Positions 1,579 through 21,000 of a stretch of 64,000 bases of DNA are shown one piece after another. The notes below the pieces were generated by a model that saw nothing but the letters and a program-made list of their open reading frames with translations, did no database searches and was not told the DNA's origin. Origin of the DNA: an uncultured Methanoregulaceae archaeon. Its GTDB lineage: Archaea > Halobacteriota > Methanomicrobia > Methanomicrobiales > Methanospirillaceae. Each line of letters starts with the position of its first letter. The stretch's first letter is position 1. The stretch spans positions 1,152,001-1,216,000 of the forward strand of contig CAVTTL010000001.1 of NCBI GenBank assembly GCA_963737635.1, read 5' to 3'. Position numbers and translations under genes: made by a program.

Positions 1579-1603
1579 ATTTCAGTACATGTTTCAAAAT
1601 CTG
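1579..1603 (+). promoter_or_regulatory. Island motif copy upstream of sod
   Basis: ATTTCAGTACATGTTTCAAAATCTG, then GGAAGATCCTTTAAA 8 nt later. Confidence 0.7.
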
Positions 1604-1703
1604 CTTTTTGAGGAAGATCCTTTAAAATTTCGTGGGAAATACCGAAACCGGATAGGACTATTCCTTTCATGATTAGTCCTCGAGAAAAAGGGAGGTATTG
1701 AAC

Positions 1704-2321
1704 ATGGAATCAGACAAATTCTACACGTTACCGAAGCTGCCTTATGACTATACAGCCTTGAAACCCTATATTTCTGAAGAACAACTAAAACTGCATCATC
1801 AGAAGCATCACCAGGCGTATGTCAACGGGGCAAATGCCATCTACGAGAAATTTGATAAAGCACGTAAAGAGAATTCAGACTTTGACGTTAAAGCGACATT
1901 CAAAGAGTTGTCATTCCATATAGGAGGATTTAAGCTCCACAATTTATTCTGGGAGAACCTTGCTCCCGCTGGGAAAGGCGGAGGCGGCGCTCCAAAAGGA
2001 GCACTTGGGGAAGCAATTAATACGGAGTTTGGGAAGTTCGACCGTTTCAAAAAAGAGTTTACTCAGGCCGCAGCAAGTGCCGAGGGATCAGGATGGGCCG
2101 CGCTGACGTTCTGCAGGAAAACCGGAAGGCCGCTTATAATGCAGATAGAGAAACACAATACCAATGTCTTCCCCGGTTTCGACATTATCATGGTCCTTGA
2201 TGTCTGGGAGCATGCGTATTATCTCGATTATAAGAATGATCGGGCAAAATTTGTCGATGCATTCTGGAATATCGTAAACTGGGATGAAATCGGCAGGCGC
2301 TTTGACCAGGTACGGAAATGA
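1704..2321 (+). CDS. sod: Fe/Mn superoxide dismutase
   Basis: [33 protein letters not shown]. Confidence 0.97.
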
Positions 2322-2372
2322 TAAAAACGCCGGGAAAGGTAATCCGGTGCAACAGGAAATCGGTACTGGTTC

Positions 2373-2408
2373 TTTATGATCAGATTGCCTGTAAAATAAG
2401 ATCATAAA
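2373..2408. promoter_or_regulatory. Inverted repeat, possible operator of the flavoprotein gene
   Basis: TTTATGATC-N18-GATCATAAA, perfect 9-bp arms about 70 bp upstream of ATG 2480. Confidence 0.4.
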
Positions 2409-2479
2409 TTATTTCAACGGGAACCTGCAACGCCATCGCCGGCCTTTTAGGTTATCGCCGAATACTGGTGAATTGAACT

Positions 2480-3871
2480 ATGGCTGTGGAATATGATCTG
2501 ATTGTTATCGGAACTGGTGCGGCTGGCGTATCAGCAGCTACTACAGCAGTGCATCTGGATGCAGCTCATGTAGCCGTTATTGAGCGAGGGCCTCTCTGGG
2601 GCACATGTGTCAATACCGGGTGTATCCCAAGCAAATTTCTCCTTACTTTGGCCGGTTACAACTATTACCGTGGACATGGGCATACTGGTGTCCATATGGA
2701 GAGTCAGCTCGATCTTAAACAGGTGCTCGAGGAAAAAAATGTACTCCAGAAAAAGCTGCGGGAGAAAAAACGAGACAACCTTTTCACCAGACTTGGCGTC
2801 GAGCTTATAGAAGGGGAAGCGAAATTTCTCTCACCTTCTGTATTGCAGGTAGGCGACAGAAAACTCACTGCACAGCGTTTTATCATCGCGACTGGTTCTT
2901 CGCCTGCAGTCCCACCCCTTGACGGTATCAGATCGGTCCCGCTCATGACAAGCACGGACGCTATGGACCAGGAACAGATTCCCTCAACACTTACCATAAT
3001 CGGGGGAAGAGCACTCGGCCTTGAATTTGCCCAGCTGTATGCCCATTTGGGGACCCGTGTCACCCTTATCCAAAGAAGCCCCCGGATCATTCCTGAGGAA
3101 GATCCCGAGATCGCGGGCCTGATGACTGGCTATCTAACTCGTGAAGGGATTAATATCATCACTGGTGCGGAAATCAGGCGTATTGAACGAGCCGGGAGTG
3201 CGATTTCGGTTATTGTACGCGTTGGCGCAGAACAAAGGGTTATCTCTGGGGAACATCTCTTCCTTGCGACGGGACGTTCCCCGAATACAAAAGAACTCGA
3301 CCCCGGATCTGCAGGAGTTGACACGAGAAAAGACGGGGCAGTTATTGTTGATACTACCTTGAAGACATCTGCTCCCCACATTTGGGCAGCTGGTGATGTG
3401 ACCGGTGAACCGATGCTCGAAACAGCGGCAAAGTACGGCGGCGAAATCGCTGCATCAAATGCCCTGCGGGAATTGAAACGATCATACAATAGTGCGCTTC
3501 TCCCCAAGGGGATCTTCACCATGCCACAGGTTGCGAGCGTGGGAATGACTGAAGAGAGCGCCCGCAGAGCCGGCATGCAACCGGTATCACACAGCATCAG
3601 CACTGACTCGATGGCAAAGTTCTCGATAGATGGAGACACACGGGGCCTCGTAAAAATCGTTGCCGACCGGGCGACCCGGCGTATCTTGGGAGTTCACATC
3701 TGCGCTCCGCTTGCCACCGAAATGATCCAGGAAGGGGTCATTGCTGTTATGAGATACCTGACCGTGGATGATCTTGCGGGAACCCCTCACATCTTCCCAA
3801 CAGCGACAGAAGCACTTGCCGTTTGTGCCCGCGGCTTGCGGGACCATACCGGATCGTATCCTGAATGTTGA
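2480..3871 (+). CDS. Class I pyridine nucleotide-disulfide oxidoreductase, MerA-like
   Basis: GTGAAG, GTCVNTGCIPSK, IWAAGDV, HIFPT (MerA-like rather than the HAHPT of lipoamide dehydrogenase); no C-terminal Cys-Cys. Confidence 0.85.
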   Translation: MAVEYDLIVIGTGAAGVSAATTAVHLDAAHVAVIERGPLWGTCVNTGCIPSKFLLTLAGYNYYRGHGHTGVHMESQLDLKQVLEEKNVLQKKLREKKRDNLFTRLGVELIEGEAKFLSPSVLQVGDRKLTAQRFIIATGSSPAVPPLDGIRSVPLMTSTDAMDQEQIPSTLTIIGGRALGLEFAQLYAHLGTRVTLIQRSPRIIPEEDPEIAGLMTGYLTREGINIITGAEIRRIERAGSAISVIVRVGAEQRVISGEHLFLATGRSPNTKELDPGSAGVDTRKDGAVIVDTTLKTSAPHIWAAGDVTGEPMLETAAKYGGEIAASNALRELKRSYNSALLPKGIFTMPQVASVGMTEESARRAGMQPVSHSISTDSMAKFSIDGDTRGLVKIVADRATRRILGVHICAPLATEMIQEGVIAVMRYLTVDDLAGTPHIFPTATEALAVCARGLRDHTGSYPEC

Positions 3872-3898
3872 GTATTTCCTGAAATAGGGCAGAATCAT

Positions 3899-3923
3899 TT
3901 TTCAAATGATGTTCTATAATTTG
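3899..3923 (+). promoter_or_regulatory. Degenerate island motif copy upstream of lipoprotein/OYE genes
   Basis: TTTTCAAATGATGTTCTATAATTTG, then CAAAATAATTAT at the conserved spacing. Confidence 0.45.
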
Positions 3924-3978
3924 GAAATTGTCAAAATAATTATCTGATGTTTGGACGCGACTACAGTGAAGTGGTTGT

Positions 3979-4876
3979 ATGAAAGCGTGTCTTGTGCTCA
4001 TGGCATTCTTGGTATTGATATCGATCCTTCTTGTCACTGGTTGCACCCAGAATCAAGCGTCCCAATCGGCAGCTCAGTCTGGTTCACCTCCGGCGTCGCA
4101 GCAGGCCACTCAGTCTGCTGATACCATTAAGGTTGCATCGTCTTCTCTGGGAAATATTCTCGTAGATGCACAGGGCAAGACCCTGTATTATTTTGCTCTT
4201 GACGTACCTGCAAGCGGTGCAAGCGTATGCAGTGGCTCATGTGCGGGTATCTGGCCGGTCTTCTATACCGGGGCGATTACCGTATCGCCGCCTCTAATGG
4301 CGTCCGACTTTTCGTCCTTCGTCCGGTCTGACGGCATGAACCAGACGACATACCGTGGATGGCCGCTCTATTACTTCCAAGGAGACAACAACCCCGGCGA
4401 CATCTCTGGTGAGAATGTCACCCATAACTGGTTTGTAGTCAAACCGGATGAAACCGTAATGATCGCCCAGCGTAGTTCATTAGGTTTATTCCTCGTCGAC
4501 AAGATGGGTAATACCCTGTATTACTTCGCAAAAGATACTCCGGGGATGAGTTCCTGTACAGGGGCATGCACGGGAAAATGGCCCCCATTCAATGCCGGGA
4601 CGGTTAGTGCTCCATCAGGTACTAAACCCGGCAGATTTCAGTACAGTGACGAGATCAGATGGAACTAACCAGTCCGCGTTTATGGGAAGACCGCTGTATT
4701 ATTTCTCCAACGATACTATGCCCGGGCAGACAAACGGCGAGGGGTTCAATAATCTCTGGTATGTTGCAAACGTTACCGGTTACGCTCCATCTGCACCCAC
4801 ACCAACACCTACACCGACCCCAACCCCCACACCAACCCCGACAACAGTGTCTTACGGTGGAGGAGGGGGCTATTAG
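3979..4876 (+). CDS. Lipoprotein with secreted Y-X4-D repeats (COG4315-like); frameshift near 4615
   Basis: Lipobox LVTGC; repeated GKTLYYF..D, CxGxCxxxWP and PLYYF..D..PG units across ORFs 3979-4668 and 4592-4876; PT linker, ends YGGGGGY. Confidence 0.85.
4792..4843 (+). repeat. Pro-Thr coding repeat
   Basis: (CCNACN)n encoding APTPTPTPTPTPTPTPT. Confidence 0.85.
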
Positions 4877-4904
4877 AGAGGATCCGGTGTTAAACGGGGG
4901 CTGT

Positions 4905-5981
4905 ATGAGTGTCTTATCTCCCTACAGGATGGGGGACCTCGTTCTTTCGAACCGGATGGTTATGGCACCGATGACCCGGTGTCGTGCTGGAAAAGGCAAT
5001 ATACCGGGTCCATTATCGGTTATCTATTATGAGCAGAGATCATCCGCAGGTCTCATTATTTCTGAAGGTTCACAGGTAAGCCCCCAAGGTGTTGGTTTCT
5101 ACCGGACACCAGGAATTTATTCAACCGGACAAGTTGAAGGCTGGAAAAGTGTAACACGGGCGGTTCATCGCGCCGGGGGAAAGATCTTCCTCCAGCTCTG
5201 GCACGTTGGGCGTATGTCACACCCCGATTACCTGAACGGCGGGCTTCCGGTCGCCCCGTCAGCGCTTCCGGTCAACGAAGAGATCCATACTCCGGTTGGC
5301 AAGAAAATGATCCCGGTTCCCCGGGCACTCGAACCAAAGGAGATCCCGGAGATCGTACAGCAGTTCGGGAAAGGTGCCGCAAACGCGAAAGAAGCAGGTT
5401 TTGACGGTGTTGAAATCCATGGAGCAAATGGTTACCTGCTGGACCAGTTTCTCAGGGATGGTTCGAACCAAAGGACGGATAACTATGGGGGAACTCTTAA
5501 AAACCGGGCACGTTTACCGCTTGCGGTTGCTGAAGAAGTGGCAAGGGTGTGGGGCCCAAAAAGAGTTGGGTATAAAATCTCACCTCATTTTCTAAACCAT
5601 GCCATGTCTGATACGAATCCCCGGGAGACCTTTGCTTACTTGGCACAGGAGCTGGGCAGGCTGGGTATAGGCTATATTCATCTTGTGGAGCCGATCGGGG
5701 GAAGGCTCGGGCAAATACAACCCGAGATGCAGATGGCCCCTCTAATCCGTAAAAAATTCGATGGCACGCTTATCCTTAACGGAGGCTATGATCTCAAAAG
5801 CAGCACTGAAGCAATTGAGAGCGGCCTTGCTGACCTGATCGCTTTCGGTGTCCTGTTCCTGGCAAACCCGGATCTTCCCGAGAGATTCGGGAAGAATACG
5901 TCTCTGAATCGCGAAGACATCTCAACATTTTATTCAGGTGAAGAGAAGGGATACACGGATTACCCGTCGCTCGGGTCGTAG
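4905..5981 (+). CDS. Alkene reductase / old yellow enzyme (NemA-like)
   Basis: NRMVMAPMTR, QLWHVGR, GFDGVEIHGANGYLLDQF, ANPDLPER, GYTDYP. Confidence 0.95.
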   Translation: MSVLSPYRMGDLVLSNRMVMAPMTRCRAGKGNIPGPLSVIYYEQRSSAGLIISEGSQVSPQGVGFYRTPGIYSTGQVEGWKSVTRAVHRAGGKIFLQLWHVGRMSHPDYLNGGLPVAPSALPVNEEIHTPVGKKMIPVPRALEPKEIPEIVQQFGKGAANAKEAGFDGVEIHGANGYLLDQFLRDGSNQRTDNYGGTLKNRARLPLAVAEEVARVWGPKRVGYKISPHFLNHAMSDTNPRETFAYLAQELGRLGIGYIHLVEPIGGRLGQIQPEMQMAPLIRKKFDGTLILNGGYDLKSSTEAIESGLADLIAFGVLFLANPDLPERFGKNTSLNREDISTFYSGEEKGYTDYPSLGS

Positions 5982-6041
5982 AAGAAAATCAGGAACAAGG
6001 GTAGTCCTTAAAGGGTAGATTCACTCAAAAAAAGTTTTACG

Positions 6042-6353
6042 TCATTTTTTCCCGAGAAGTCCCTGAGCATACCGTTGTGCCATCTCGGACCCCTTCGTGC
6101 AATAGAACCTGTTTTTGAGCCCGATCTCGCTCGTAACCGGGCAGGTCGGGCAAATACAATCTTTCTCCTGGGAAATACAGACAAAACTCTTTCCTTCTGC
6201 ACAAAAGAGTATTTCCTTGGCATTCTTCGCACATCCAGTGTATGTCGGGCATGAAGGACAGGTACACATCTTCTTGAACGTTTCCACTGCCTCCATCATC
6301 TGGGCAGGCGACATTCCTGCCATCGACTTCATCGCATCATCGAATTTGTCCAT
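6042..6353 (-). CDS. Cys-rich DUF2769-type protein
   Basis: CTCPSCPTY..C...LFC..GKS..CI....CICPTCPV......YC..G pattern. Confidence 0.8.
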   Translation of the reverse strand: MDKFDDAMKSMAGMSPAQMMEAVETFKKMCTCPSCPTYTGCAKNAKEILFCAEGKSFVCISQEKDCICPTCPVTSEIGLKNRFYCTKGSEMAQRYAQGLLGKK

Positions 6354-6372
6354 GATATTTCCCTCCGACTAT

Positions 6373-6852
6373 CTATTCAATGGCAATTTTTCCCCCGGAA
6401 TCTTTTGCTACCTTCTTGAGATGGATTTCCAGAACACCATTCTTGAACGTTGCAGAGGAAGCATTTTCTGTCACCGGTTTTGGGAGGGGAACGATCCGTG
6501 TCATCGATCCAAAACTGCGCTCACGCAGATAGTAGCCCTCGTTTTCCTCTTTTCTTTCCTCCCTGCGTTCGCAGGATATCTCAAGAGCTTGCGGAGTAAC
6601 CAGATCTAGAGAAATATCCTTTTTGGCCAGTCCCGGGATCATATCGGCAGTCACGACAACTTCGTCGTCCTTTTCGGTGACATCTACATGCAAGTCTGTG
6701 CGCTGTGCAGGAAGCATCTTTGTCCCTGCTTCCGCGGTAGCGGGTAACAACGCCGCCGGGCCAGTATCGTACATCTGCCGCGACAAAGACTCCATATACT
6801 TCCGCATGTCTTCGAGTTCATCAAAGATCGATCTATAATACCATCGGACCAT
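6373..6852 (-). CDS. Small heat shock protein Hsp20
   Basis: VDVTE...ADMIPG, YYLRERSFG, ATFKNGVLEI. Confidence 0.95.
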   Translation of the reverse strand: MVRWYYRSIFDELEDMRKYMESLSRQMYDTGPAALLPATAEAGTKMLPAQRTDLHVDVTEKDDEVVVTADMIPGLAKKDISLDLVTPQALEISCERREERKEENEGYYLRERSFGSMTRIVPLPKPVTENASSATFKNGVLEIHLKKVAKDSGGKIAIE

Positions 6853-6995
6853 TATTCTCACCCCATTTTTTAGTGCGGATCCCAATCCGCAGAAGGTAAG
6901 GAATCATTGTTATCCCGATGTGTCCCCGGGTAACCTGCTATCCTTATCAGGTAGCATATTGTTGAAGAATATTTTATCAATTTAATCTGAAAACT

Positions 6996-7020
6996 CATAT
7001 TTTGAAACATTTTTTGAAAA
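6996..7020 (-). promoter_or_regulatory. Island motif copy upstream of hsp20
   Basis: Minus strand reads TTTTCAAAAAATGTTTCAAAATATG. Confidence 0.7.
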
Positions 7021-7082
7021 GAATAATACCGGTCGTTCGTGCCTGGATAGGCAACCCGAGCTGAGAATTATCTACGATTAGA

Positions 7083-7368
7083 TCAACTGGTTAAATCTTC
7101 GGGTCTCAGCAACGAAAGGACAGCCTCAATATTGGAGATCTCGCGCTTGATGATTTCTTCATGAAAATAGTACCTCAGTTTTTGTTCGAATTTCAACCGG
7201 AAATTGTGGTTCCATCCGTGTCCCGGATCGGTACTGGTTCCTGATATAGAACTGGAACTCGTCAAGATCCTGGCGGGTGAGTTTGTCGATGAACATTGCC
7301 TGGTACTTATTCATCAGGTACTGTTTCGTATCTCCAAAAGGAATGTTTTCTTGTGCCATGTTATCCAC
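7083..7368 (-). CDS. Hypothetical protein, probably one gene with a frameshift near 7230
   Basis: Overlapping protein-like ORFs 7159-7368 and 7083-7265 in operon orientation. Confidence 0.45.
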
Positions 7369-7753: not shown

Positions 7754-9622
7754 TTATTTTTCATCATTCACTTTGAAATCCGCGTCGACAACCCGCTCGC
7801 CTCCCTGACCGCCTGGCTCTTCACCTGAGGATGCAGCCTGCGGGCCGGGCTGCTGCTGTGCTTGCCGGCGGGCGGTCTCCTGGTACGCGGCTGATCCCGC
7901 TTCCCCGAGAACCTTTTGGAGTTTTTCGGTTTCCGACTTTATTTTTGCAACATCCTTACCTTCCAGTGCCGCTTTGACAGCAGTTATTGCCCCGTTAAGC
8001 CGGTCCGTCACGTCAGCATCTAGTTTGTCGGCCAGGTCGACCTTCGTTTTTTCCGCAGTATACACTAAGGAATCGGCGGTATTGCGTGACTCAGACTCCT
8101 CTCTTATTGCCTTGTCCTGCTCCTCGTATTCTTTGGCATCGCTGACCATCTTTTTCACATCGCTGTCAGAAAGTTTCGTTGAAGCGGTAATGGTCATCTT
8201 CTGCTCTTTACCGGTGCCGAGATCTTTTGCCGAAACATTGAGGATACCGGAAGCATCGATATCGAACGTAACTTCGATCTGCGGAACGCCCCGGGGAGCC
8301 GGCGGAATGCCTACGAGGTTAAACTGGCCAAGGCTTACATTGTCTGCCGCCATCGCCCGTTCACCTTGGAGTACATGAATGGTAACCGAGGTCTGCATAT
8401 CTGCTGCGGTAGAAAAGATCTGGCTCTTCTTCGTCGGGATCGTCGTATTCCTGTCGATTAGAGGGGTTCTTACACTCCCAAGCGTTTCAAGGCCTAGGGT
8501 CAAGGGTGTGACATCGAGGAGCACCATGTCCGTGATCTCTCCTCCAAGGATCGCCCCCTGAATCGCTGCACCCATGGCAACGCACTCCATCGGATCGATG
8601 CCTCGTACCATCTTATTGCCGACATGATCTTCGATGAATTTCTGGACGACCGGCATCCGGGTCGGTCCCCCGACAAGGATCACCTTCTGGATATTCCCTT
8701 TGGTCAGTTTCGCATCTTTCAATGCCTGGTCGAACGGGACGATACACCGTTTAATGATCGGTTCAATCAGCTGTTCGAGCTTGGCACGTGACAATTTGAT
8801 GGAGAGATGCTTGGGGCCTGATTGTGTCGCAGAAACATAAGGAAGATTGATCTCAGTTTCGAGCACCGTCGAAAGCTCGATCTTTGCCTTCTCGGCTGCT
8901 TCTTTTACCCGGTTGATTGCCATCTTGTCGGTGCGTAGATCTATCCCTTCCTGCTTCTTGAACTCTGCCGCGATCCATTCGTAGATTGCATTGTCCATAT
9001 CGGTACCGCCGAGCTGGGTATCACCAGATGTCGCGAGAACGGTAAATGTACCGCCGCCAAACTCCATGATGGTGACATCGAGGGTACCACCACCAAGATC
9101 GAATACGAGGATCTTATACTCGCCTCCTTTATCAAGCCCATAAGCCATGGATGCCGCTGTGGGCTCGTTGACAAGCCGCACGACTTCGAGACCGGCAATT
9201 TTTCCCGCATCCTTGGTCGCCGTCCTCTGGTTGTCGTTAAAGTAGGCAGGTACCGTAATTACTGCCTTCTTTACTGGTTCGCCCAAGAAGGCTTCCGCGT
9301 CTCTTTTTATCTTCTGCAGGAGAAATGCCGAGATCTGCTGGGGTGTATATTCCTTCCCGTAAATCTTGTAAATATGAGAGGTGCCGATCTTCCTTTTTGC
9401 CGCTGTTACCGTGCCGTCAGGGTTGCTTACGGTCTGCCTTCTGGCTGGTTCCCCCACAAGGAGCTGGCCGTCAGCGGTAAATGCGACATACGAAGGAAAC
9501 ATTTTCCCGGCAACAGTCGCTCCTTCTGCAGAAGGAATAATAGTCGGTTTGCCGCCAACCATTACTGCTGCTTCGCTGTTGGATGTTCCAAGGTCAATAC
9601 CAATAATTTTTTCCTTACTCAT
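7754..9622 (-). CDS. dnaK: Chaperone DnaK (Hsp70)
   Basis: [44 protein letters not shown]. Confidence 0.99.
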
Positions 9623-10103
9623 TCTTCTCACCTTTGGGTTCCACTATGTGTTCTGCAATCTTTACTTTCGAAGGCCTGATCACTTTGGATTTCAACCGGT
9701 AACCTTTTCCCAGATCCTCAAGGATCGTGTTCTGCTCGCCGGAGCACTTCTCTGTGCATATGGCTTCATGGCACTGTGGATCGAATTTTTTTCCGATGCA
9801 TTCTATAGGCTGCAGGCCATACGAGGATAGGACATTAATGAATTTTTTATAAATCATCTCCATTCCCTCCCTGTTTTTTTCCTGTTCGAGGCATGGAAAT
9901 GCATGTTCGAAATCATCAAGGATCACGAGGAGATCCTCTATCAGGCGCTCATTTGCGAGCTCCGTGATCAGCTCTTTTTCTTTTGCTGAGAACCTGCGAA
10001 AATTCTCAAAATCGGCCTGAAGGTACCTAAGCTGGTTAAGTCGCTCCCCGGCAAAACGGGTCTGTTCCTCAAGTTCTTTTTTTAGTTGTCCGATCTCATC
10101 CAT
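9615..10103 (-). CDS. grpE: Nucleotide exchange factor GrpE
   Basis: [32 protein letters not shown]; RBS GAGGTGA before ATG 10103. Confidence 0.96.
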
Positions 10104-10140
10104 CGGATCACCTCTTTTTTTATCGCTCTCCGTATGCCTT

Positions 10141-10299
10141 TCAGTCAAACCGGGGATGGATCCAGTAACGCCGGATGAAATCGGAATATATACAGCTCTC
10201 TGAATGACAACGGTTACAACCATCTCCCGGACAATAAAATCCGCCAAGGTAAACTGTTGCAAAAGGGTATTTTTTAACGCATCCTTTGCCTTTGCACAA
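10141..10299 (-). CDS. Putative 52-aa Cys-rich protein
   Basis: TTG start after GGGGGT; CKGKGC...CPGDGCNRCHSESC; lies between the motif promoter and grpE. Confidence 0.5.
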   Translation of the reverse strand: MCKGKGCVKKYPFATVYLGGFYCPGDGCNRCHSESCIYSDFIRRYWIHPRFD

Positions 10300-10424
10300 A
10301 TTACCCCCGTTTTTCTCTATGCTCTCACCCGTTACACGCAATCTGCCTGCAGTTTCAAATACGGGAATCGATCTCACCCGTGAGCGCATTAATTAGGAGA
10401 TATAATAGGATCTTTCTTAGAAAC

Positions 10425-10449
10425 CAGATTTTGAAACAAAATTTGAAAT
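10425..10449 (-). promoter_or_regulatory. Island motif copy upstream of the grpE-dnaK operon
   Basis: Minus strand ATTTCAAATTTTGTTTCAAAATCTG, then GAAAGATCCTATTAT 8 nt later. Confidence 0.75.
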
Positions 10450-10478
10450 ATCAGGAGGATTTTTTTTAAGAAATCCAA

Positions 10479-10946: not shown

Positions 10947-10952
10947 TATGAA

Positions 10953-12092: not shown

Positions 12093-13528
12093 AACTGTTC
12101 CCTCCGCTCGTTCATGATCGTAATCAGTTCCTGCCGGTCCCGGCGCCCGCTAATATCCCCGGCCAGTTTCTGGTCTTGGAGCGTATGTTCGATCCATTGG
12201 GCAATATCGCCCCGCTCTTGGTGATAGATAATCGAATCCGCTGGCACTACTTGGAGCAGGTCGCAGAACTGGTCGAGACTGTAGGCGGCATACCCGACGT
12301 ACCCCGAAGGTGAGGTGAAATGAAATGCCTCTTCCGGTGTCAGGGTCCGCAGGGTCTTTGCCGATCGTTTGTTTTTCATAAGCCGGATATTCCGGTTTTC
12401 GAAATCGGCAAGGATTGCCATGTAGGTCTTAAATGCGTCACCGGCCTCGTGGTGGCTGAAGTAGTTATGTACTTCACCGCAGGTTCCGTACTTGGAGGCC
12501 ATATAATAGAAGTGGTCACTGGTCTGGAGGTACCGCCATATCGCCTTATCCTTGGCAAACGCGGCCGCCTTCTGGATCGCAGAATATGCCGTATGCTGAC
12601 GCTCGTTGCCCATCCACGCAGATGCGTCCTTCTCGATATCGGCCCAGGATATAGTCTCCCGGACATCAATCGTACCGACCGGCAGATAACTCTCCAGTGC
12701 TTCAGTAGGCAGGATGGTCCGTACACCCCGCTTTTCCAGCTCTTCCGGAAGAAACGAGAGAAAATTGAGGATCCCGGTCTCTTTCCAGAAATGTTCCCCA
12801 AAGGTCTCGTAATCGATAAAAACGTTTACCAGATCACCGGATGTACCGCTTATCCATTCAGCATAGGTGTCTGCCGTCAGCGGGAACTTGTCCCACCCCC
12901 GGTTGCCAAACCGGAAAGCGATATCGTCAGAGACTTGGGTATCGCGGAGGAGGACCGGCATATCTTCACAACTATAGATGTGGTGCGGGCTGCGCCAGTT
13001 GAGAATCCGGTCCACACCTTCGGTGTAGACTCCAGTATACCCCATCTTTTTTACACAGGACGCGATGTTGTTATTAAACGTAAATTCAGTATTTTCAAAA
13101 ACCACCGGACGGATCCTGAAAAGGTCATACATCAGGTCGGTATGCATGGTAGCCTGTTCCATAAACTCCGACTTATCCCCAAAGCAGCCTGCAATGCTAT
13201 GGTAATAGGTCTGTCCCAGCAGCTCGGTATTCCGGTGCCGGGCTACCTGGTCGAAAAGGGCAAGGACATCCGGTTTCCATTTCTCCAGCTGCTCGATAAG
13301 CGTCCCGGAAAAAGAAAACGTACAGTGGAATCCTTCGTCGAGTTTTTCTAGGATGATCCGGGTGGCCGGCAGGTAACATTTTTCTGCAACCCTGTCCAGG
13401 ACATCCCGGTTAATTTCATCGAAATAGAGCGCATCGAGATCCTTTTCCTTCTTCTTTGGATCCGGTGAGAAGTGCCGGTTCAGCCTGAATGGCTGGTGCA
13501 CTTCAAATCCGATACAGATATCTGGCAT
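12074..13528 (-). CDS. GH57 alpha-amylase-like protein with C-terminal DUF5752-like domain
   Basis: FEVHQPFRL, TYYHS, NTE, SDDIAFRF, DYETFGEH, LQTSDHFYYM; tail AFHF...SIIYHQERGDIAQW. Confidence 0.93.
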   Translation of the reverse strand: MPDICIGFEVHQPFRLNRHFSPDPKKKEKDLDALYFDEINRDVLDRVAEKCYLPATRIILEKLDEGFHCTFSFSGTLIEQLEKWKPDVLALFDQVARHRNTELLGQTYYHSIAGCFGDKSEFMEQATMHTDLMYDLFRIRPVVFENTEFTFNNNIASCVKKMGYTGVYTEGVDRILNWRSPHHIYSCEDMPVLLRDTQVSDDIAFRFGNRGWDKFPLTADTYAEWISGTSGDLVNVFIDYETFGEHFWKETGILNFLSFLPEELEKRGVRTILPTEALESYLPVGTIDVRETISWADIEKDASAWMGNERQHTAYSAIQKAAAFAKDKAIWRYLQTSDHFYYMASKYGTCGEVHNYFSHHEAGDAFKTYMAILADFENRNIRLMKNKRSAKTLRTLTPEEAFHFTSPSGYVGYAAYSLDQFCDLLQVVPADSIIYHQERGDIAQWIEHTLQDQKLAGDISGRRDRQELITIMNERREQLWSRLT

Positions 13529-13709: not shown

Positions 13710-13734
13710 CAGATTTTGAAACACGGGTTGAAAC
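13710..13734 (-). promoter_or_regulatory. Island motif copy upstream of the GH57-GT4 operon
   Basis: Minus strand GTTTCAACCCGTGTTTCAAAATCTG, then GAAAGGGTCTATTAT 8 nt later. Confidence 0.75.
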
Positions 13735-13772
13735 CAGAGCCCCCCCGATTAAAACTGAGTCAAAATACAATT

Positions 13773-14444
13773 CTAATACCCGAGGGACTCGCTGACAAGG
13801 ACAAGGTTAATGCGCCCTTCCTGCTTCTCGTTTGCAAGAATCACGCATTTCCCGATCATACTGGGAGTACCATAGGCTTTCATAGCCCGGGTATTCTCAA
13901 GAGGGAAGACATATTTCCTGATCCGGTTTAGTGCGTCCTCGACCGTGGGGACAATTTTATTGACCCCTGCGACCAGAACAAGATGCCCCGCAGCAAAAGG
14001 CCACGCACCGACACGGCTTCCGCTGGCATCGCAAGCAACAATCTCACCTCTCTGGGAAATCGCATTCACTGACGAGATGAAATAATCGGCCGTAACGGAT
14101 TTTCTCCGCAGCTCTGCACGTTTTACCGGATCATCCTCGGCAGTGATCTTCGTATGTAAAAGATTCCACCCACTCTTTCCTCCGGCAACATAATCCTCGA
14201 ACCCGATCTCGATAAGGGTTGTCGAGGAACCGCTCATAACTTCAGCGTTAGGTGGGATAAGTTTCCGAACCGCTGCAAGCGCCTCGTCGCCATTTGCAGC
14301 ATGGGAAACCTTTATCCCCCGTTTTTCTAGAGCCTTAATTGTTATAGCAACAACTTCCGGTGTCGGAAAAATGTTCCACGAATCCGCATCCACGGCACTT
14401 TCCGGGTAAAGGTTTACGGCGCTATACGGGGTAATTCTACTCAT
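13773..14444 (-). CDS. LUD-domain (lactate utilization-like) protein
   Basis: GSSTTL.EIG, SSVNAI...GEI...D.SGSRV, VAGVNKIV. Confidence 0.85.
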   Translation of the reverse strand: MSRITPYSAVNLYPESAVDADSWNIFPTPEVVAITIKALEKRGIKVSHAANGDEALAAVRKLIPPNAEVMSGSSTTLIEIGFEDYVAGGKSGWNLLHTKITAEDDPVKRAELRRKSVTADYFISSVNAISQRGEIVACDASGSRVGAWPFAAGHLVLVAGVNKIVPTVEDALNRIRKYVFPLENTRAMKAYGTPSMIGKCVILANEKQEGRINLVLVSESLGY

Positions 14445-14482
14445 GTGCCCTCTTGTCGCCTTGTAGGTACAGGACACCAGAC

Positions 14483-14731
14483 TTAACCGGATCGGCTTTC
14501 CGCCACCGCGGTCTCCTGTACCGAGCCCAACCGGTACTGGTATATAATCTGGCGCATATCCTGCAGGTTCATCTTCTCGATGAGGAGTTTCTTCTCCTTG
14601 AGTTTTTTTAACGCGTAACGCACCGTTCGTGGCGAGTAGTTCACTTTTCCGGCGATCTCCTTGTGAGTCATGGCACCACCGGTACCAAGAATCTCAAGGA
14701 CGATTTTTTGTGACTGAGGTAATGATTTCAT
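14483..14731 (-). CDS. Small winged-HTH transcriptional regulator
   Basis: MTHKEIA...SPRTVRYALKKL...NLQDMRQIIY. Confidence 0.88.
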   Translation of the reverse strand: MKSLPQSQKIVLEILGTGGAMTHKEIAGKVNYSPRTVRYALKKLKEKKLLIEKMNLQDMRQIIYQYRLGSVQETAVAESRSG

Positions 14732-14758
14732 AATTCACTCCTTGGTTTATGCGAGGCA

Positions 14759-15109
14759 TCAGCCGCAGCTGGTCCCGCAACTTTCACTCTGCCCGCTGTC
14801 TGCTGCATCCTTATCTGCTAAGATACGGGGAAGCGCTTTTTTTACAAAATCATCGATCGTTCCCATCTCTCCCCAGGATTCCGTCTCGTAATTCTCGGAA
14901 TTATCCGGATTGGGCAGGATCAGCACATTGCCCTCCTCGCTCGGTCCGGAGACATACTTTTTCCCCCGGTGCAGGTTGTGTACACCTTCCGCACCGCCTT
15001 TGGGGATCCGTGCATAGATAATCCAGTAGGTCAGTTTATCTGTTGCACTAACATAGACCTCATAATCCTGCTCGAACTTTTTTAAGAGTTCCAGTGTTTT
15101 ATCCTCCAT
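14759..15109 (-). CDS. Hypothetical protein
   Basis: RBS AGGTGA before MEDKT; first gene of an apparent operon with wHTH and LUD genes. Confidence 0.7.
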   Translation of the reverse strand: MEDKTLELLKKFEQDYEVYVSATDKLTYWIIYARIPKGGAEGVHNLHRGKKYVSGPSEEGNVLILPNPDNSENYETESWGEMGTIDDFVKKALPRILADKDAADSGQSESCGTSCG

Positions 15110-15336
15110 GATCTCACCTGGTCCTAGTGCCTGCATCTCACGATGACAGATTCATTTTTTCGTTCTCTCTGGTTTTCTATCTTGATCCGGTTTGAATCAC
15201 CGGACTCATTGGCGACCGGATTGACGCGATACAACGGCATTCCTTGTTTTTTTTGGAAAACTACCGGTTTTTTGGGGCGCCTTCCCTGCCTGCATGGAAC
15301 TGGACAACAAAAAGGTATAGGTTCTTTCCCGAACAG

Positions 15337-15361
15337 CAATCTATGAAACAAATTTTGAAAC
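15337..15361 (-). promoter_or_regulatory. Island motif copy upstream of the 15109-wHTH-LUD operon
   Basis: Minus strand GTTTCAAAATTTGTTTCATAGATTG, then GAAAGAACCTATA 8 nt later. Confidence 0.7.
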
Positions 15362-15397
15362 ATGAATCAGGAGGAATAAGATGCACCATTAAATACG

Positions 15398-15676
15398 TTA
15401 GACGGGTTGCTCAAGGATAAGTTCCAGGATACCGTCATGGAATTTTTTGGTACTGATCCGCGATCCTGCGGGAACAGTAATTTTTTTCATGACCCTCTCG
15501 TTTTCTTTTGGCACTGAAATGGTAAGCCGGGTCTTTTCCAGATCGATCCGGATCTTCTCCTCAGGAATTCCATGGAGCTGGCATATGATACGGATCGAGT
15601 TTTCGATCTTGGTGACCTGTGCGGGTGGCACAATAGTGTTTTTTTGGCGTTTTTGTGGTTTTTCCGGACTAGTCAT
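15398..15676 (-). CDS. Minimal Hsp20/alpha-crystallin-like protein
   Basis: LHGIPEEKIRIDL...KITVP...KKFHDGILELIL; RBS GGAGG. Confidence 0.75.
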   Translation of the reverse strand: MTSPEKPQKRQKNTIVPPAQVTKIENSIRIICQLHGIPEEKIRIDLEKTRLTISVPKENERVMKKITVPAGSRISTKKFHDGILELILEQPV

Positions 15677-15885
15677 AGCGTTTCCTCCAGACTCTTCATG
15701 AAAAAAAACGAGGAGGTCTAACCATTGTCTGGTATCGGGAGCAAGATCAAAAAGCGCCCGCAACAGTATCGGAATCCGGTTATACCGGGAGAAATAGGTA
15801 TCTGGAGGTTACAGGTGTTGTTTCAAGATTTAGAACAGTATAAGACAGTAATTTCCTGCGCTTTCGCCGCGTAGGGCTAAAAAAA

Positions 15886-17225
15886 TTATCCTTTTACCGG
15901 TGCAGCAGATTCTATCCCGATAATATGCTGGAATACAAACTTAAATTCATTTAGCCGCTGCCGGATGTATTTCTTTCCGATCTCCGTCGGGTAATATAGT
16001 CTTGGATTTACCGGACACTTTCATCTCGAGGTATCCCTTGCTCTGGAGCTCGTAGAGGAATGAATAGATCCGTGCCTGAGGAATGAGGACATTGTACCGA
16101 TTATGGATCTCGTGGACGATATCGAATCCGGAGATCGGTTTTTCCAGAGTCGAAAGGATGACCGGTTCAAGAAGTTTTTTAACCACGTCTTCAATCGTGG
16201 ATTGGGGTACAACACTGATAGCCTCTGCCGGGAACGAGTTATGGGTAAAGGAAATAGTCGTGTCCTTCCCGGTCGATATAATGATTTTTGCAATGCCTTC
16301 CGAGATCAGCCGGATCCGATCATGATCGAGATTTGCCATATTGACTGCGATGATGCCGGTGATTGGAACCCCGGCCTCTTTTTTTGCAAGGATCATATTC
16401 TTTACTTCTACGATATCATCAAATTCTTCTGTATCTGAAAAATCAAACACAACCTGGAGTTTTCCTTGCGCATTGTCGGCAGGAAGACTCGATGTGCATT
16501 TCTCCAGGATACGGGGCAGGAAAAAGAGTTCGCCCTTTTTTATGCGCCGGGTAAACAGCAGGCCTTTTGAGATCTCTTCAAGGAAATATTTCTGCAGGAC
16601 AGACTGGTGATAGGCAAAGAAAAACCGCCCCCCTTTCTGGATACCGGCCTCGATGGCGAATTTGAATATTGGTTCTTTCACCGAGGGATCCACGTATAAA
16701 AAGAGGATAATCCCGGTAAAGATGTCCTTTAGAAGGACGGTCTTGATCTCGGGGAGCGCAAGGTATTCAGCGTCCGTCATGCCGGCGGCTTCAGGGTACT
16801 GCCCCAGGGTGGGGCGCAACCCGGGTTGCCTCTGCTTTCTTTTTCATTTCCTGTTCCGAAGCCCTCCGGAACAGGGCTATTTCAAGGGCAGCTTTTAACT
16901 CCAGTTCGTTAAAGGGTTTGACAATATACCCGTACGGCCGGACCTGCTTGGCCTTCTCGATAATTGCATCATCGGCGTACGACGTGATGAAAATCACCGG
17001 GATATCCAGTTCGTTTACAATCGTCCGAGCTGCTTCGACACCATTCACCTTCCCCGGCATAACAATATCCATCAGGATCAGATCAGGAGTAAGCCGCCTG
17101 GCTTTCTCGATCGCATCATCCCCGGATGCTGCCATCCCCACGACTGTATATCCCATCACGTGCAGCCGCTCTTCAAGCTGCATGGTGATGATCGCTTCAT
17201 CGTCGACAACAAGAATTTTTGACAT
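15886..17225 (-). CDS. Response regulator: REC + MEDS-like middle domain + PadR-like wHTH (frameshifts near 16810 and 16000)
   Basis: ILVVDDE, LILMDIVMPG, YIVKPF; C-terminal PISGFDIV..IHNRYNVLI..ARIYSFLYELQSKGYL continuing in another frame as LYYPTEIG to TAA at 15886. Confidence 0.8.
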
Positions 17226-17229
17226 CCTA

Positions 17230-20200
17230 TCACCTGCATGTTTCAAGGGGGAAATCGATATTCACGAGCGTACCCCGGTCGCTGCTTTCTATAGCGAGGC
17301 TCCCCTGAAGCTGCCGCACTAGGTTCCGGATCAACTTCAGCCCCAGACTCGAGGTGGTACCGGGATCCACGTCCGGGGGGATACCGGTCCCGTTATCCTG
17401 AATCGTGATATGGACCCGTCTCCCGTCCTGCTGTGCACGAACACGGATAGTCCCCTCTTTTCGCCCTTTAAAGGCATAGATAAACGAGTTTGACAGAATC
17501 TCGTTTAATGCCAGTGCACATGGTATAGCTAAGTCCACCGGGAGAGAAAACCCTTCCGCATCTACCTCGCAGCTGATCACAGGGCCGGACTTCCCGTAGA
17601 TCCCGGAAAGATCATTTGTCATATCCTGTATCTGGGCACCCATATCGATCCGGCCGGACTGGTTGCTCTGGTACAGCCGGGTATGGATCTGGGCCATCGT
17701 CTTGATCTTCAGCATCATATCGGTCAGGATGCCAGTGGTCACCGGATCATGGGTTCGCGATCTGGTCATCTCGAGGAGGCCGGTTATAATCTGGAGGTTG
17801 TTTTTGACCCGGTGGTGGATCTCCCGGATCAGGCTGTCTTTTTCTGCGAGTGTGGAAAGTATCTTTTCATTGGCCCGTTTTGTTTCGGTTACATTTCGGA
17901 AATACCCTATAATCCCGTCGATTTCTCCCAGATTATTCATTTTGGGCACATACGATCCATCGAAGTAGTTTATCTCACCCCGGGCGCTCGCAATCGCTAT
18001 TTCATTGGGAACTGCTATCCCGCTTTCCAGGACGCGCTTCTTGATCGTAGTCAGGGCATCTGCATCTTCCCGGGACGCAAGATCGTAATCGGTCTTCCCG
18101 ATCATATCGTCCTCGGTGATATCCATCTGTGGATTTATGACCATGGTATATCGGAGATCGCTATCCTGCACCAGAATATGATCGGGAGTACTGGTGGCAA
18201 TGATCCGGAATTTTTCAAGGCTTTCCTTCAAGGCCTCTTCGGCATTTCTCCTCTCGGTGATGTCACGGTAACTCCAGACCCGGCCAATAATGGCATCGCC
18301 AATTTTCTGAGGCCGTGAAAACCGCTCAAAGATCCGGCCATCTTGGAGCCTGACCATATCATAGCTCTCACGTCCCGGGTGACTGTACAGTTCATTCCTG
18401 CGATCGGTAAACTCCCGGATGTCTTCTACAAGCGGAAAAATATAGGCAAGCGCAGTCGCCTCACCCGCGGCCTCAAGTACATGTTCCGGGATCCCCCAAA
18501 TCGCACAGAATTTCTTGTTGTAACTGGTAATTTGCCGGTCGCTATCCACTACGAGAATACCGTCAGCTGTGGAATCAAGGGCAGCCTGAAGCAGCGATGC
18601 AGTCTTCATCGCCATCTCTTCGGCACTTTTACGGCCCGTAATATCCTGGCCTTGGGCCATCGTGGAGATTATCGTGTCACCATCGGCATCATAGACGTTT
18701 GCTGAATTCCAGAGCACAATTTTTACGGCACCGGATACATGCCTGACCGGGATCTCCACCGACTCCCAGCGTTCCCCGCAGCTGGTCTTCCGGATCAGTT
18801 CCATGGACTCATCTTTGAATTTTTCCGGGAAGAGGGTATCAAGGGGTTTTCCTATCACCTCATCTGCGGCCATTCCGGTCAGGAACTCAAAGGCCTGATT
18901 AAACCGCAGGATTCTGAACCGGGTGTCCCACACGATGATGGGGGCATTGGCATAGGCGATCAAGTTCTCGAGGTACTGGCTTGTCCCCCTCAGGGTATCA
19001 TCGGTTTTTTTCCGCGCCATCGCTATTGCAACCAGATCGGTTACGGCCTGCATCAGGTCTAATTCCTCAGCGGTAAACGTAGGCCTGTCTTTGGTCCCGA
19101 AAGAAAGCGTCCCAAGGGTAGTGCCCCGGTAGATGAGGGGATGGCATGCATACCCGGAAATCCCGAAGGAGCGGACGAGGCAGAGTGCATCTTCATCGGA
19201 GTTCTGGATATCGCACGCCACCACCCTTTTGCCCCCCTGGGCCACCCGGCCACAGACTGATTCACCGATATTGAGGGTGGAAAATTTGCCTACCTCTCCA
19301 TCCGGGACACCGGCACTGGCGTTCAGCTTCATCCGCTGCCTGCTTTCGTCGATTAGATAATTATAAAAGATATCGCAGGAAAGGAAATGCATTACCCGTT
19401 CGCCGATGATCTGGACAACACGTTCAGGCTTCTCGGAACTCATCAGGAGCCGGGCAGAGTCTGCGAGAATCCTGAGTTTTTCCTTCTCTTTTTTTAGCCT
19501 CTCTTCCTGCTTCCTTCGTTCGGAGATATCCTGGAATGTCCCGATCACCGAAGAACGTGCCCCCTCCCGTACCGGGGAGAGCCCCCGAAGTTCAGTCCAG
19601 ACCTTCTTTTTCGAGCCAGTGGTAATCAGGAACTCAAGTTTAAAAGGCTCTCCGGTGGCAAGGCATCGTTCAATGTTTTTCCGGATAATGGGCTGGTCAT
19701 CCGGGGAAAAAAAGTCCAGCCCCTCAGAAAGGCCTAACTGGTAGTTGCAGGGAGTCTCGAAGATGTCGTACGCCCCGACCGTCCACTGGAGATAATTAGT
19801 ATGCGGGTTTGCCTTCCACCCCCCAATCTTTGCGATCTTTTCAGTCTCCCGCAGGAACTGTTCGCTCTCGTGCAGGGCCCGTTTGTTTCTGGTAATTGTA
19901 TCGATATCCTGCCGTAAGTTCTTTTCAACAGCCAGATGTTCCGAATTGTGGGCGCTGAGAGTCTGCATTCCTGCTGGCAAGTTCCTGTTCTGTCCGGTCA
20001 AGATAGAGGCCAATTTCTCCCGACAATCTGCCGACAATGATTGAAGTACCGGTGATGAAGATGACGAGGCCGGCTGAGATGATGACAGCGTTTGAGATGG
20101 CAAACCACCCGGAAATAAGATAAAAAAGAATTGTTTCACCCCCGGTTATGGCTAAGGAGAGCGGGACAAAGGTCCGCAACAGCCGTGCCCTGATGGAATT

Positions 20201-20908
20201 TCCCGTAAAAAAAGAAAGTGGTCTCGTTGCCGGGCCTGCAGCAAAAATAAGCCCCAAGCCGATTAAGAACGCGGCAAGGGCGGAGAGCATAGCAACCGGA
20301 ATGACCGATGGTGAAATAATGAGGGGTGTCCCGAACAGGTAACTCAACGCGAGTGTGAAACCCGTAAGTATAAGAATGATCCCGGTAATCACAGAAATTT
20401 GCCGTGCCCGGGAGCGCGGTGACGACAGGAAGTCAGGATCGATGCAGAAAAACAGCCCGGCGGCCGCGATGACGATCAGTGCTGAAGCTACCGGGGAGAT
20501 TGGCGATGACCGGGGCCCAAAGATCACCAAGCCTGCCGAAACAAACCATGATTCTAGGATAAACTGCTTTCCGTTCAGGTTTGATAGGATATTAAGAAGT
20601 TCTGCGACTGCGATAACGACAAGGACAAATCGCAAAAGAATAAGGGAAGCATGGCCGACCTTTCTTATTGACGTGTAGATAAGGACCCCGCCGAAAAAGA
20701 TCCAGATAAAAGCAGCGCTTAATGCAATGGTTTTGCACCCTTGGCATACACTACTTATGGCAGTACTACCGGTTATATTCCCGGCAATTCCGGTGAGACA
20801 GGTCAGTATGGCAAGGAGACCAAAAGTCAAAGTCAGTCGTTTAAACAGAACTGCATCTGTCTCCATGCCGGGTACATACGCATCGCTTGACGGTACCTTC
20901 AGGAACAT
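17230..20908 (-). CDS. Membrane histidine kinase: multi-TM, PAS, GAF, PAS x3, HisKA_2, HATPase (frameshift near 19960)
   Basis: Hydrophobic N-terminal ORF joins the 969-aa ORF; EIHHRVKNNLQ, NEILSNS, DNGTGI, SLGLKLI. Confidence 0.9.
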
Positions 20909-20975
20909 TACCTTGCTACCCCGGGAACATTTACCGTAATTCCGTATAGAATAGAACTCCGGTATCTTTATTTAA

Positions 20976-21000
20976 ACATTATCAGATGTTTCAAAAAATG
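20976..21000 (+). promoter_or_regulatory. Island motif half-copy upstream of the Met-rich protein gene
   Basis: ATGTTTCAAAAAATG core; upstream repeat unit poorly conserved. Confidence 0.5.

Follow-up and report, generated by a model that had tools for sequence, protein, structure and literature searches.

A tandem TTTCA promoter motif ahead of stress genes in Methanoregulaceae and a linked response regulator as its candidate reader

The genome of an uncultured Methanoregulaceae archaeon carries several copies of a tandem TTTCA motif in front of operons that include genes for oxidative defence, chaperones and glycogen enzymes, which raises the question of what this motif does and which protein reads it. 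We addressed this question in a 64-kb stretch of DNA (the window, C1:1152001-1216000) from a 2.46-Mb assembly of four contigs that is 90% complete (genome G000 in our set). A sequence-only reading of the window had proposed that a single activator co-induces these operons through the motif. The analysis presented here indicates that the motif is very probably a functional regulon site. The best explanation of the whole, to which we assign a probability of about 0.55, is a cis site of a stress regulon that is read by a response regulator encoded beside it; we infer the binding, the activation and the signal.

Motif copies in the window, the genome and the genus

Pattern counts in the window were compared to those in 100 shuffles of the same 64 kb. 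The pattern TTTCA-N5-TGTTTCAAAATCTG was matched four times with at most 3 mismatches (1580 +, 6996 -, 10425 - and 13710 -) against 0.04 matches expected, and 0/100 shuffles reached four. With a 14-mer core at no more than 2 mismatches, six matches were found against 0.59 expected (six reached by 0/100 shuffles), the additional ones being located at 15349 (-) and 20987 (+). A pattern-blind repeat finder returned motif copies as well: its largest direct-repeat family (D1) consisted of the copies at 6986, 10415, 13700 and 15327, and its longest inverted pair (I1) of those at 1577 and 6987. Copies were scored with a matrix of 26 columns that was built from the eight best copies, with the reversed genome as control. 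By this approach, the following sites were located in the window, all of them forward with respect to the operon that they precede:

1578..1603, plus strand: motif array before the superoxide dismutase (SOD)/pyridine-nucleotide-disulfide oxidoreductase operon (matrix score 37.0; 0 mismatches to the pattern)
3898..3923, plus strand: weak site before the Lipoprotein_15/Old-Yellow-Enzyme operon (matrix score 23.6)
6996..7021, minus strand: motif array before Hsp20-DUF2769 (matrix score 36.8)
10425..10450, minus strand: motif array before a 78-aa Cys-rich open reading frame (ORF), GrpE and DnaK (matrix score 40.3, the best of the genome)
13710..13735, minus strand: motif array before GH57, GT4 (glycogen-synthase-like) and a 155-aa ORF (matrix score 34.3)
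15337..15362, minus strand: motif array before a 125-aa ORF, an 82-aa winged helix-turn-helix protein (wHTH82) and a LUD-domain gene (matrix score 32.7)

The five strong copies were found to be co-oriented with the next gene (SOD, Hsp20-DUF2769, GrpE-DnaK, GH57-GT4 and 125-aa ORF-wHTH82-LUD, as judged by ORF list and Pfam), as the sequence-only reading had stated. A second box starts exactly 8 nt past the motif in the four copies for which this had been claimed, with the letters quoted there; behind the SOD array, a box resembling a TFB recognition element (BRE) and TATA element spans 1612-1627. Other details needed adjustment. The first copy is real but starts at 1580, not 1579, and the array at 15337 consists of three TTTCA at a 12-nt period, the third lying 12 nt further upstream of the register first described. 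The copy placed at 3899 is weak as claimed (the score of 23.6 compares to no match of at least 20 in the reversed genome), yet the orthologous lipoprotein operon bears a site in two relatives. The other weak copy, at 20976, is a half-site only and probably belongs to the promoter of a kinase operon rather than to the Met-rich protein to which it had been assigned. From 24 to 64 kb of the window no site of at least 20 was detected (best score 12.3, at genome position 1182083), in agreement with the absence of copies reported for that part.

When the whole genome was searched with the matrix, 15 sites scored at least 20 and nine at least 25, compared to 0 and 0 in the reversed genome, where the best score was 19.8. 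Eight of the 15 were the copies used for training, and seven sites are thus new. Seven of the 15 fall between 1149968 and 1167362 (within 17 kb), including a strong site 2 kb before the window (1149968 +) that lies ahead of CheW-like, DsbD_TM, Thioredoxin_10 and MsrA-Grx genes. Elsewhere in the genome, sites of at least 20 were found at:

514078: ahead of type-I GAPDH and a P-type ATPase
1727956: ahead of a 117-aa ORF leading to UvrA
496893: ahead of a small ATP-cone protein
501923: ahead of a small HEAT-repeat protein, followed by MacB/FtsX permease genes

The ORFs behind the sites at 1649414, 755980 and 235434 had no Pfam family, and one further site of at least 20 was located on contig C4. 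The orientation of the motif is not random.

Relatives were searched with the pattern at no more than 2 mismatches and with the reversed pattern as control. The pattern was present in 16/24 other genomes of the genus, often several times, and in 1/16 genomes of five other families; the reversed pattern had a single match over all of these 24 + 16 genomes. In the whole genus sample, 69/108 genomes (G000 included) carried the pattern, versus 2 matches of the reversed pattern. Loci around the pattern matches were surveyed in 20 relatives, in which 86 sites of at least 20 were detected, and orthologs preceded by a site were found as follows:

grpE-dnaK: 9 genomes (G021, G002, G008, G060, G054, G022, G043, G010, G024)
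SOD: 9 genomes
Hsp20: 5 genomes (G008, G043, G054, G021, G016)
117-aa ORF: 5 genomes
GH57-GT4: 4 genomes (G071, G009, G054, G020)
DsbD-Trx-MsrA: 2 genomes
125-aa ORF and winged helix: 2 genomes (G020, G071), also loci L202 and L204
lipoprotein: 2 genomes (G054, score 35.9; G071, score 22.0)
ATP-cone protein or its 70-aa neighbour: 2 genomes
GAPDH: 1 genome

Small ORFs without a homolog in this genome follow many of the relatives' sites. Sequences flanking the sites do not align; thus, it is the site that is conserved and not a duplicated segment. Conservation before orthologs in many related species supports, by comparative evidence, the proposal of one regulon that unites oxidative defence, chaperones and glycogen enzymes.

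Promoter architecture and the linked response regulator

The architecture of the site was derived from 75 aligned sites (the 8 copies of this genome and 67 from relatives that scored at least 27). Their consensus is tgTTTCAAAaTt TGTTTCAAAATC TGaTTTttgg aAAgat(c/t)c TATaAaat. Two and a half 12-bp units (TG-TTTCA-AAATY) in tandem make up the motif; from the end of this array it is 8 nt to a BRE-like AAA and 17 nt to TATAAAA. Columns 3' of the 26-mer took no part in finding the sites. Conserved there, counted past the motif, were a T-run at +1 to +5, AAA at +9 to +11, TATA at +17 to +24 (with an information content above 1.2 bits at three columns outside the search matrix), AA at +34/35 and a G-rich stretch at +46/47. 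The G-rich stretch reads GGTGA before two unrelated gene families, 45-48 nt past the motif: in one it is the GTG start of the 78-aa Cys-rich ORF ahead of grpE, and in the other it is the ribosome-binding site 5-9 nt before the ATG of the 117-aa ORF. Judged by the usual consensus, the whole block looks like a canonical archaeal promoter with a predicted transcription start near +45 to +48 past the motif. With the TATA box fixed at 17 nt, the site would span about -73 to -38 of such a promoter. The alignment thus bears out a fixed distance between the motif and a BRE/TATA pair, and the start that had been predicted 40-50 nt downstream fits the conserved GGTGA/GTG start at the level of sequence. 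The description of the TATA element as mostly non-consensus did not hold up, as it is near-consensus TATAAAA across the 75 sites.

The interval covered by the sequence-only reading also contains a likely regulator (15886-20908), which that reading did not name:

15886..17246, minus strand: response-regulator gene, encoding a receiver domain (REC), a KaiC/RecA-like middle domain and a PadR winged helix (by Pfam, tblastn and fold searches)
17230..20908, minus strand: PAS/GAF/HisKA_2/HATPase histidine-kinase gene (by Pfam; two overlapping ORFs, 17230-20139 and 19925-20908)

Pfam analysis of the ORFs of the window detected Response_reg at 16791-17246 (89.3 bits; cut-off 30.2) and a weak PadR match at 15947-16819 (19.5 bits). 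The receiver ORF overlaps the 290-aa ORF with the weak PadR match, and in relatives the two form one protein of 445-450 aa. In the intact 450-aa regulator of G020, Response_reg covers residues 4-115 (82.5 bits) and PadR residues 360-425 (28.5 bits; cut-off 27); only these two domains were given by Pfam, with no Trans_reg_C, AAA+ or Fis-type domain. Receiver residues D8, D9, D53, T81 and K103 are at least 90% conserved in the family (alignment A1). When a profile of 43 members was compared to solved structures, PadR chains were matched to E 7.8e-11 (5dym) and hsRosR (6qfd) at E 9.5e-5, the PadR-structure match covering the C-terminal 100 residues of the regulator. A full-length AlphaFold model had a mean predicted local distance difference test score (pLDDT) of 88.6, and a fold search with this model returned receiver-domain matches only. 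Modelled alone (pLDDT 86.7), the middle 185 residues adopt a RecA/KaiC fold (Foldseek E 6e-5), which matched FlaH (4yds) with a VIA Z of 14.2 (root-mean-square deviation 3.1, 162 aligned residues) and KaiC, Rad51, RadB and Sso2452 with a VIA Z of 12-13. A Walker A loop (GxxxxGK[ST]) was found in 0/43 members, and the middle domain is therefore filed as KaiC-like by fold only; the invariant D265 after a hydrophobic strand may be a Walker B remnant. Based on its 450 aa, its three domains and the linked direct-repeat array, we regard the regulator as a PadR-domain protein and not as a typical PadR regulator. In a search space of 1.84 billion, the family comprises 270 cluster representatives at E<=1e-3, 94 at <=1e-10 and 24 at <=1e-30, and its members measure about 420-450 aa when they carry a receiver and about 290-340 aa when they do not. 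In 12/12 loci examined, the regulator gene was immediately preceded by a kinase gene on the same strand. Several genomes were observed to carry two or three regulator paralogs, the second at 57-61% identity (e.g., L071, G020:C1:1536001-1548000), and sites near this second paralog often read TTGCA, TGTCA or TTCCA instead of TTTCA.

Both genes are interrupted in the window. By tblastn, the regulator aligned with the G020 protein in frames -1, -2 and -3, with breaks in the linker between REC and middle domain and near the C-terminus, and the kinase aligned with the 1253-aa G020 kinase in two frames. All three breaks (one in the kinase, two in the regulator) sit in this gene pair; none was noticed in the other ~18 kb of coding sequence of the cluster. 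The frame change at the receiver-middle linker is common to the close relatives L121 and L122, and L120 is intact. The nearest intact relative is only 78% identical in DNA. The breaks could be due to assembly (long-read indel) error, gene fission or decay; a 90%-complete 4-contig assembly would fit indel errors, but of the ~23-kb cluster only these two genes show breaks.

A second geometry, in which reversed units end about 11 nt before TATA, was found before the kinase gene and before a small gene that follows the regulator:

15398..15676, minus strand: small conserved gene, about 92 aa from its ATG, which follows the regulator gene and lies ahead of the next forward site
15807..15833, plus strand: degenerate motif copy, reversed relative to the small gene that it precedes (comparison of G000, G009 and G020)
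20975..21000, plus strand: half-site at the kinase operon promoter (14-mer core, 2 mismatches)

Homologs of the small gene were detected by tblastn just after the regulator in 11/14 loci tried, where they fill the space between two sites; an 'Hsp20-like' label given to this gene by eye was discarded, as Pfam gave no significant family. Read from the minus-strand kinase operon, the half-site is a reverse unit (CATTTTTTGAAACA) 11 nt upstream of a TTTAAATA box, an arrangement that was the same in L120 and L121 and similar in L070 (11 relatives' loci examined). The reverse-oriented copies suggest a feedback, positive or negative, on the kinase-regulator system itself.

The link between regulator and motif was examined at two levels. 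Among 108 genomes of the genus, 64 had both regulator and motif, 10 the regulator only, 5 the motif only and 29 neither; since related genomes are not independent, this 2x2 table carries no p-value. A separate named collection of 80 regulator loci with 2.5-kb flanks served to measure linkage, and in 57/80 a site of at least 20 adjoined the regulator, compared to 2 matches in 481 kb of reversed control. Every linked site was downstream of the regulator gene, with forward sites ~0.8-1.1 kb past the stop and reverse-strand sites ~130-160 nt past it, the latter recurring in many of the 80 loci. By title, these loci are mostly from Methanoregula/Methanoregulaceae, with a few from Methanospirillum (one complete isolate genome) or Methanolinea. 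Downstream genes were tallied for the 56 forward sites that are followed by an ORF with a homolog in this genome:

First recognisable gene: 78-aa ORF, 25; SOD, 5; grpE, 4; GH57, 4; 125-aa ORF, 2
Remaining sites: four other named genes, 1 each; other, 12, several of them matching a second grpE copy

The 78-aa ORF, mostly followed by grpE, was thus the commonest target beside the regulator in the 80 loci. In five genomes that lack both regulator and motif (93-98% complete), no site was found within 1.5 kb of 5 grpE and 4 SOD loci, where the best motif score was 5.9 (no SOD was found in G122).

Candidate readers, possible modes of action and known systems

In the explanation that we favor, the PAS/GAF histidine kinase would phosphorylate the adjacent 450-aa response regulator, oligomers of which would occupy the tandem units head to tail, and the bound regulator would promote the loading of transcription factor B (TFB) and the TATA-binding protein (TBP) on the adjoining BRE/TATA. 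Superoxide dismutase, methionine-sulfoxide and thiol repair, Hsp20, GrpE-DnaK, glycogen enzymes, GAPDH and the UvrA-containing operon would in this way be switched on jointly, and the regulator would feed back on its own operon through the reverse-oriented copies. The linked regulator is probably the reader of the motif and, provided that it binds, would more probably than not activate, a role that is plausible from the position of the site only. The inducing signal would be oxidative, heat or general stress. The most specific version of this proposal, in which a lineage-specific two-component system directly drives a general stress regulon by means of a regulator composed of receiver, ATPase-dead KaiC-like oligomerisation domain and PadR helix on 12-bp repeats, is put forward tentatively, at somewhat less than even odds.

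Several observations weigh against this proposal. The regulator and kinase genes are broken in this assembly, yet eight strong sites persist, which would mean either that the breaks are errors of the assembly or that something else maintains the sites. PadR-family proteins are dimers that bind inverted repeats and act mostly as repressors, and a direct-repeat array would be unusual for them. The BRE/TATA consensus (gAAAg...TATAAAA) looks near-canonical, which weakens the weak-promoter argument for activation and leaves no obvious need for an activator. Five of the ten regulator-only genomes hold only homologs of 36-46% identity; the other five comprise four that are 61-79% complete and G050, which is 90% complete with a 61% homolog. 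Among the motif-only genomes, G006 and G064 (87-96% complete) have single weak 2-mismatch matches, and G011, G104 and G110 are 64-74% complete. No site was found in 23/80 regulator loci, six of which belong to the seven loci at 52-54% identity (L205-L211) and 17 of which are at least 59% identical. Co-occurrence and synteny are common to kin and would be expected also if the regulator were a mere member of the regulon; co-occurrence extends to the small gene that follows the regulator, to the 125-aa ORF and to wHTH82.

Another factor, either wHTH82 or an unlinked transcription factor, might therefore read the site, with the two-component system only a co-regulated or co-inherited neighbour, since co-occurrence cannot tell reader from target; we consider this unlikely. 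wHTH82 does have the look of an autoregulated factor, being encoded in a motif-driven operon in G000, G020, G071, L134, L202 and L204, and a motif-like site was found directly before its homolog in G013 (no regulator found; 70% complete) and G019. Its homologs, however, are present in 37/41 genomes, including motif-less species and four other families, and wHTH82 has exactly the same recognition helix (PRTVRYALKKLKE) as a ~90-aa paralog (G000 C1:1230336-1230570, outside the window; homologous loci L048-L069) with a palindromic element, ATGTTAACA-N2-GTTAACAT, that is unrelated to the TTTCA repeats. This palindrome is located right after the TATA box of the paralog, is conserved in the genus as well as in several further families of the order, and occurs once in this genome; it looks like the operator of the paralog itself, which would be a separate autoregulated factor. 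The identical helix and the different palindromic element argue that the wHTH82 family reads GTTAAC-type sites and not the TTTCA array, if that operator is correctly assigned. On the basis of the homologs in motif-less genomes and of this paralog, wHTH82 was set below the response regulator as candidate reader; it is also the regulator gene, and not wHTH82, that is the constant neighbour of the sites (57/80 loci). Far less credible is that the 60-nt module needs no dedicated regulator and represents a promoter class for a variant basal factor (a TFB/TBP paralog) or a copied cassette. The conservation of BRE, TATA, -11 AA and start region as one block would fit such a module, as would the clustering of 7/15 sites in 17 kb. 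The tandem units upstream of the BRE are nevertheless the most conserved part, in a region in which basal factors read no sequence, and the module is missing at the orthologous promoters of regulator-less species that keep the genes. The copies are not recent duplicates, as their flanks differ freely and so does the 5-nt spacer within the first unit, and a cassette is further disfavored in that no terminal repeats were detected by the repeat finder and no Rfam family was found in window positions 1-24000.

The site might also be bound, by the linked regulator or by another factor, to the opposite effect, with the protein blocking TFB until stress releases it, as heat-shock repressors of other archaea keep TFB out until stress. 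The near-consensus BRE/TATA, with which basal activity may be high, would be in keeping with repression, as would the degenerate third unit that abuts the BRE, the reverse copies that end ~11 nt from TATA at the kinase and small-gene promoters, the repressor role usual among PadR-family proteins and the persistence of sites beside a regulator gene that is broken in this assembly. We nevertheless regard repression as rather improbable. Known repressor sites of archaea overlap the BRE/TATA or the start site, and in regulators with a receiver domain it is usually phosphorylation that confers DNA binding. The strongly conserved units are all placed entirely 5' of BRE/TATA (-73 to -48), an arrangement like that of activation of the Ptr2, TFB-RF1 and EarA type (PMC5512572).

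Of these activators, Ptr2 of Methanocaldococcus jannaschii binds multiple sequences upstream of the BRE and recruits TBP, and TFB-RF1 (PF1088) of Pyrococcus furiosus and EarA of Methanococcus maripaludis overcome weak BREs (PMC5512572). The site described here is similarly located just upstream of the BRE, at a fixed distance and in multiple copies, and TBP/TFB recruitment is presumed. By contrast to these one-component regulators of other families, our candidate has a PadR-type helix and, as a response regulator, is controlled by phosphorylation; the BRE/TATA are not weak-looking, and ~15 promoters are concerned instead of one or few. The combination of histidine kinase and winged-helix response regulator is shared with the archaeal DNA-binding response regulators FilR1, LtrR and Bat, FilR1 also being from a methanogen. 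FilR1 of Methanosaeta (Methanothrix) harundinacea binds promoters as well as its own operon, and phosphorylation enhances this binding (PMC3991700). Its domains are ordered wHTH-DUF1724-REC, with the receiver C-terminal (PMC5847659), unlike the order of REC, KaiC-like domain and PadR found here. The main text of the FilR1 paper (PMC3991700) appears to define no binding motif, whereas here motif and regulon are predicted from sequence.

A provisional methanogen output domain, MetOD5, is listed in Table 3 of the census by Galperin et al. (2018; PMC5847659), where it is described as REC-associated, ~300 aa and present in three Methanoregula proteins, with no function given; this census was the only place in the literature searched where MetOD5 was named. 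MetOD5 is probably the same family as the part of the regulator after the receiver, which fits in size, taxon and REC association. A few of our regulator homolog loci are by title from outside Methanoregula (Methanospirillum, Methanolinea), compared to the Methanoregula-only listing of MetOD5. The census passages on MetOD5 assign it no fold, DNA binding or target; here, the part after the receiver is found to comprise a KaiC/RecA-like fold and a PadR winged helix, in a family with 94 cluster representatives at E<=1e-10.

The regulator may work like a member of the OmpR/PhoB family, whose winged-helix output, under the control of a receiver, recognises direct repeats arrayed in tandem ahead of the promoter, though it is not a member: it has no Trans_reg_C domain, the repeat period of its presumed site is 12 bp compared to the 10-11 bp of PhoB boxes, and the transcription machinery is archaeal. 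In its division into three parts (receiver, P-loop-fold central domain, DNA-binding domain) it resembles NtrC. It has no AAA+ or Fis-type domain by Pfam; the central domain is of RecA/KaiC-type fold and lacks Walker A in all 43 members. With regard to the PadR family and RosR, a haloarchaeal oxidative-stress regulator, the C-terminal winged helix resembles PadR (5dym) and, more weakly, hsRosR (6qfd); unlike these small stand-alone dimers, the regulator has two further domains ahead of the helix, and a direct-repeat array as its presumed site. To our knowledge, the tandem TTTCA array appears unlike the Phr, HSR1, MsvR and RosR operators. A search of the literature (supplements aside) revealed no described regulator or regulon of this kind, nor the motif strings. 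What is new here is the linked kinase-regulator pair with an undescribed domain layout.

Target operons and significance

The operons behind the forward sites of the window were delineated as follows (all by ORF list and Pfam; families in brackets):

1698-3871, plus strand: SOD-oxidoreductase (Sod_Fe_N/C, Pyr_redox_2)
3979-5981, plus strand: lipoprotein-Old-Yellow-Enzyme
6042-6885, minus strand: Hsp20-DUF2769 (HSP20, DUF2769)
7754-10389, minus strand: 78-aa ORF-GrpE-DnaK (GrpE, HSP70)
10479-13528, minus strand: GH57-GT4-155-aa ORF (Glyco_hydro_57, Glycos_transf_1/Glyco_transf_5)
13773-15136, minus strand: 125-aa ORF-wHTH82-LUD (HTH_24, LUD_dom)

The SOD is a Fe/Mn SOD by Pfam. The CheW-like/DsbD_TM/Thioredoxin_10/MsrA-Grx operon, which has its motif at genome position 1149968 (+), runs into the window at 21-1529, where Pfam identifies a thioredoxin-like protein and an MsrA-glutaredoxin. 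No Pfam family was found for the 78-aa, 117-aa, 125-aa, 155-aa and 190-aa ORFs.

The Cys-rich ORF (CPxxGCxRC; 78-82 aa; window 10141-10389, minus strand) lies between the motif-driven promoter and grpE, and its GTG start is 45-48 nt past the motif in this genome and in the 13 promoter sequences of relatives examined; its mRNA is probably leaderless or nearly so. A second grpE-dnaK locus (G000 C1 near 2388796-2390872) is without motif, and the ortholog of this motif-less copy follows a regulator-linked forward site in many relatives. Two genes that flank the cluster (window 21528-25043), one glycogen-phosphorylase-like (DUF3417 + Phosphorylase) and the other for an ADP-dependent kinase (ADP_PFK_GK), have no motif copy; only part of the glycogen pathway bears the site.

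Outside the window, three paralogous small HEAT-repeat proteins of 120-137 aa (L034:5103-5483, L034:7054-7467 and L039:4876-5238; G000 C1 near 500 kb and 204 kb) were each observed behind a weaker motif copy with an unchanged spacing to a BRE/TATA-like box. Sub-threshold sites were found before small HEAT-repeat genes at 499975 (score 15.6; a Mrp/ParA-type gene is next) and 204338 (score 13.9), with the same spacing to a BRE/TATA-like box. A MacB/FtsX-type permease is seemingly split into ORFs of 105 aa and 270 aa (L034:7608-8796; G000 C1:502608-503796), possibly by another frame break of the assembly.

The output mode of archaeal two-component systems is largely open, and this locus provides a concrete case that can be tested: the site is precise (36 bp), it marks about 15 promoters in one genome and recurs at these promoters in dozens of species, and the candidate regulator has domains that lend themselves to expression; related species without regulator and site are natural controls. 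If the proposal is correct, the regulator would be the first of the archaeal two-component type for which DNA word, geometry and regulon are defined, and an archaeal analogue of the bacterial layout of receiver, P-loop and DNA-binding domain. If the regulator does not bind, the motif would still define a conserved stress regulon, and the 36-mer could be used to fish out its reader. The locus would also give a first picture of how methanogens of peat and sediment coordinate oxygen defence, chaperones and glycogen reserves, which bears on how they survive swings of the water table.

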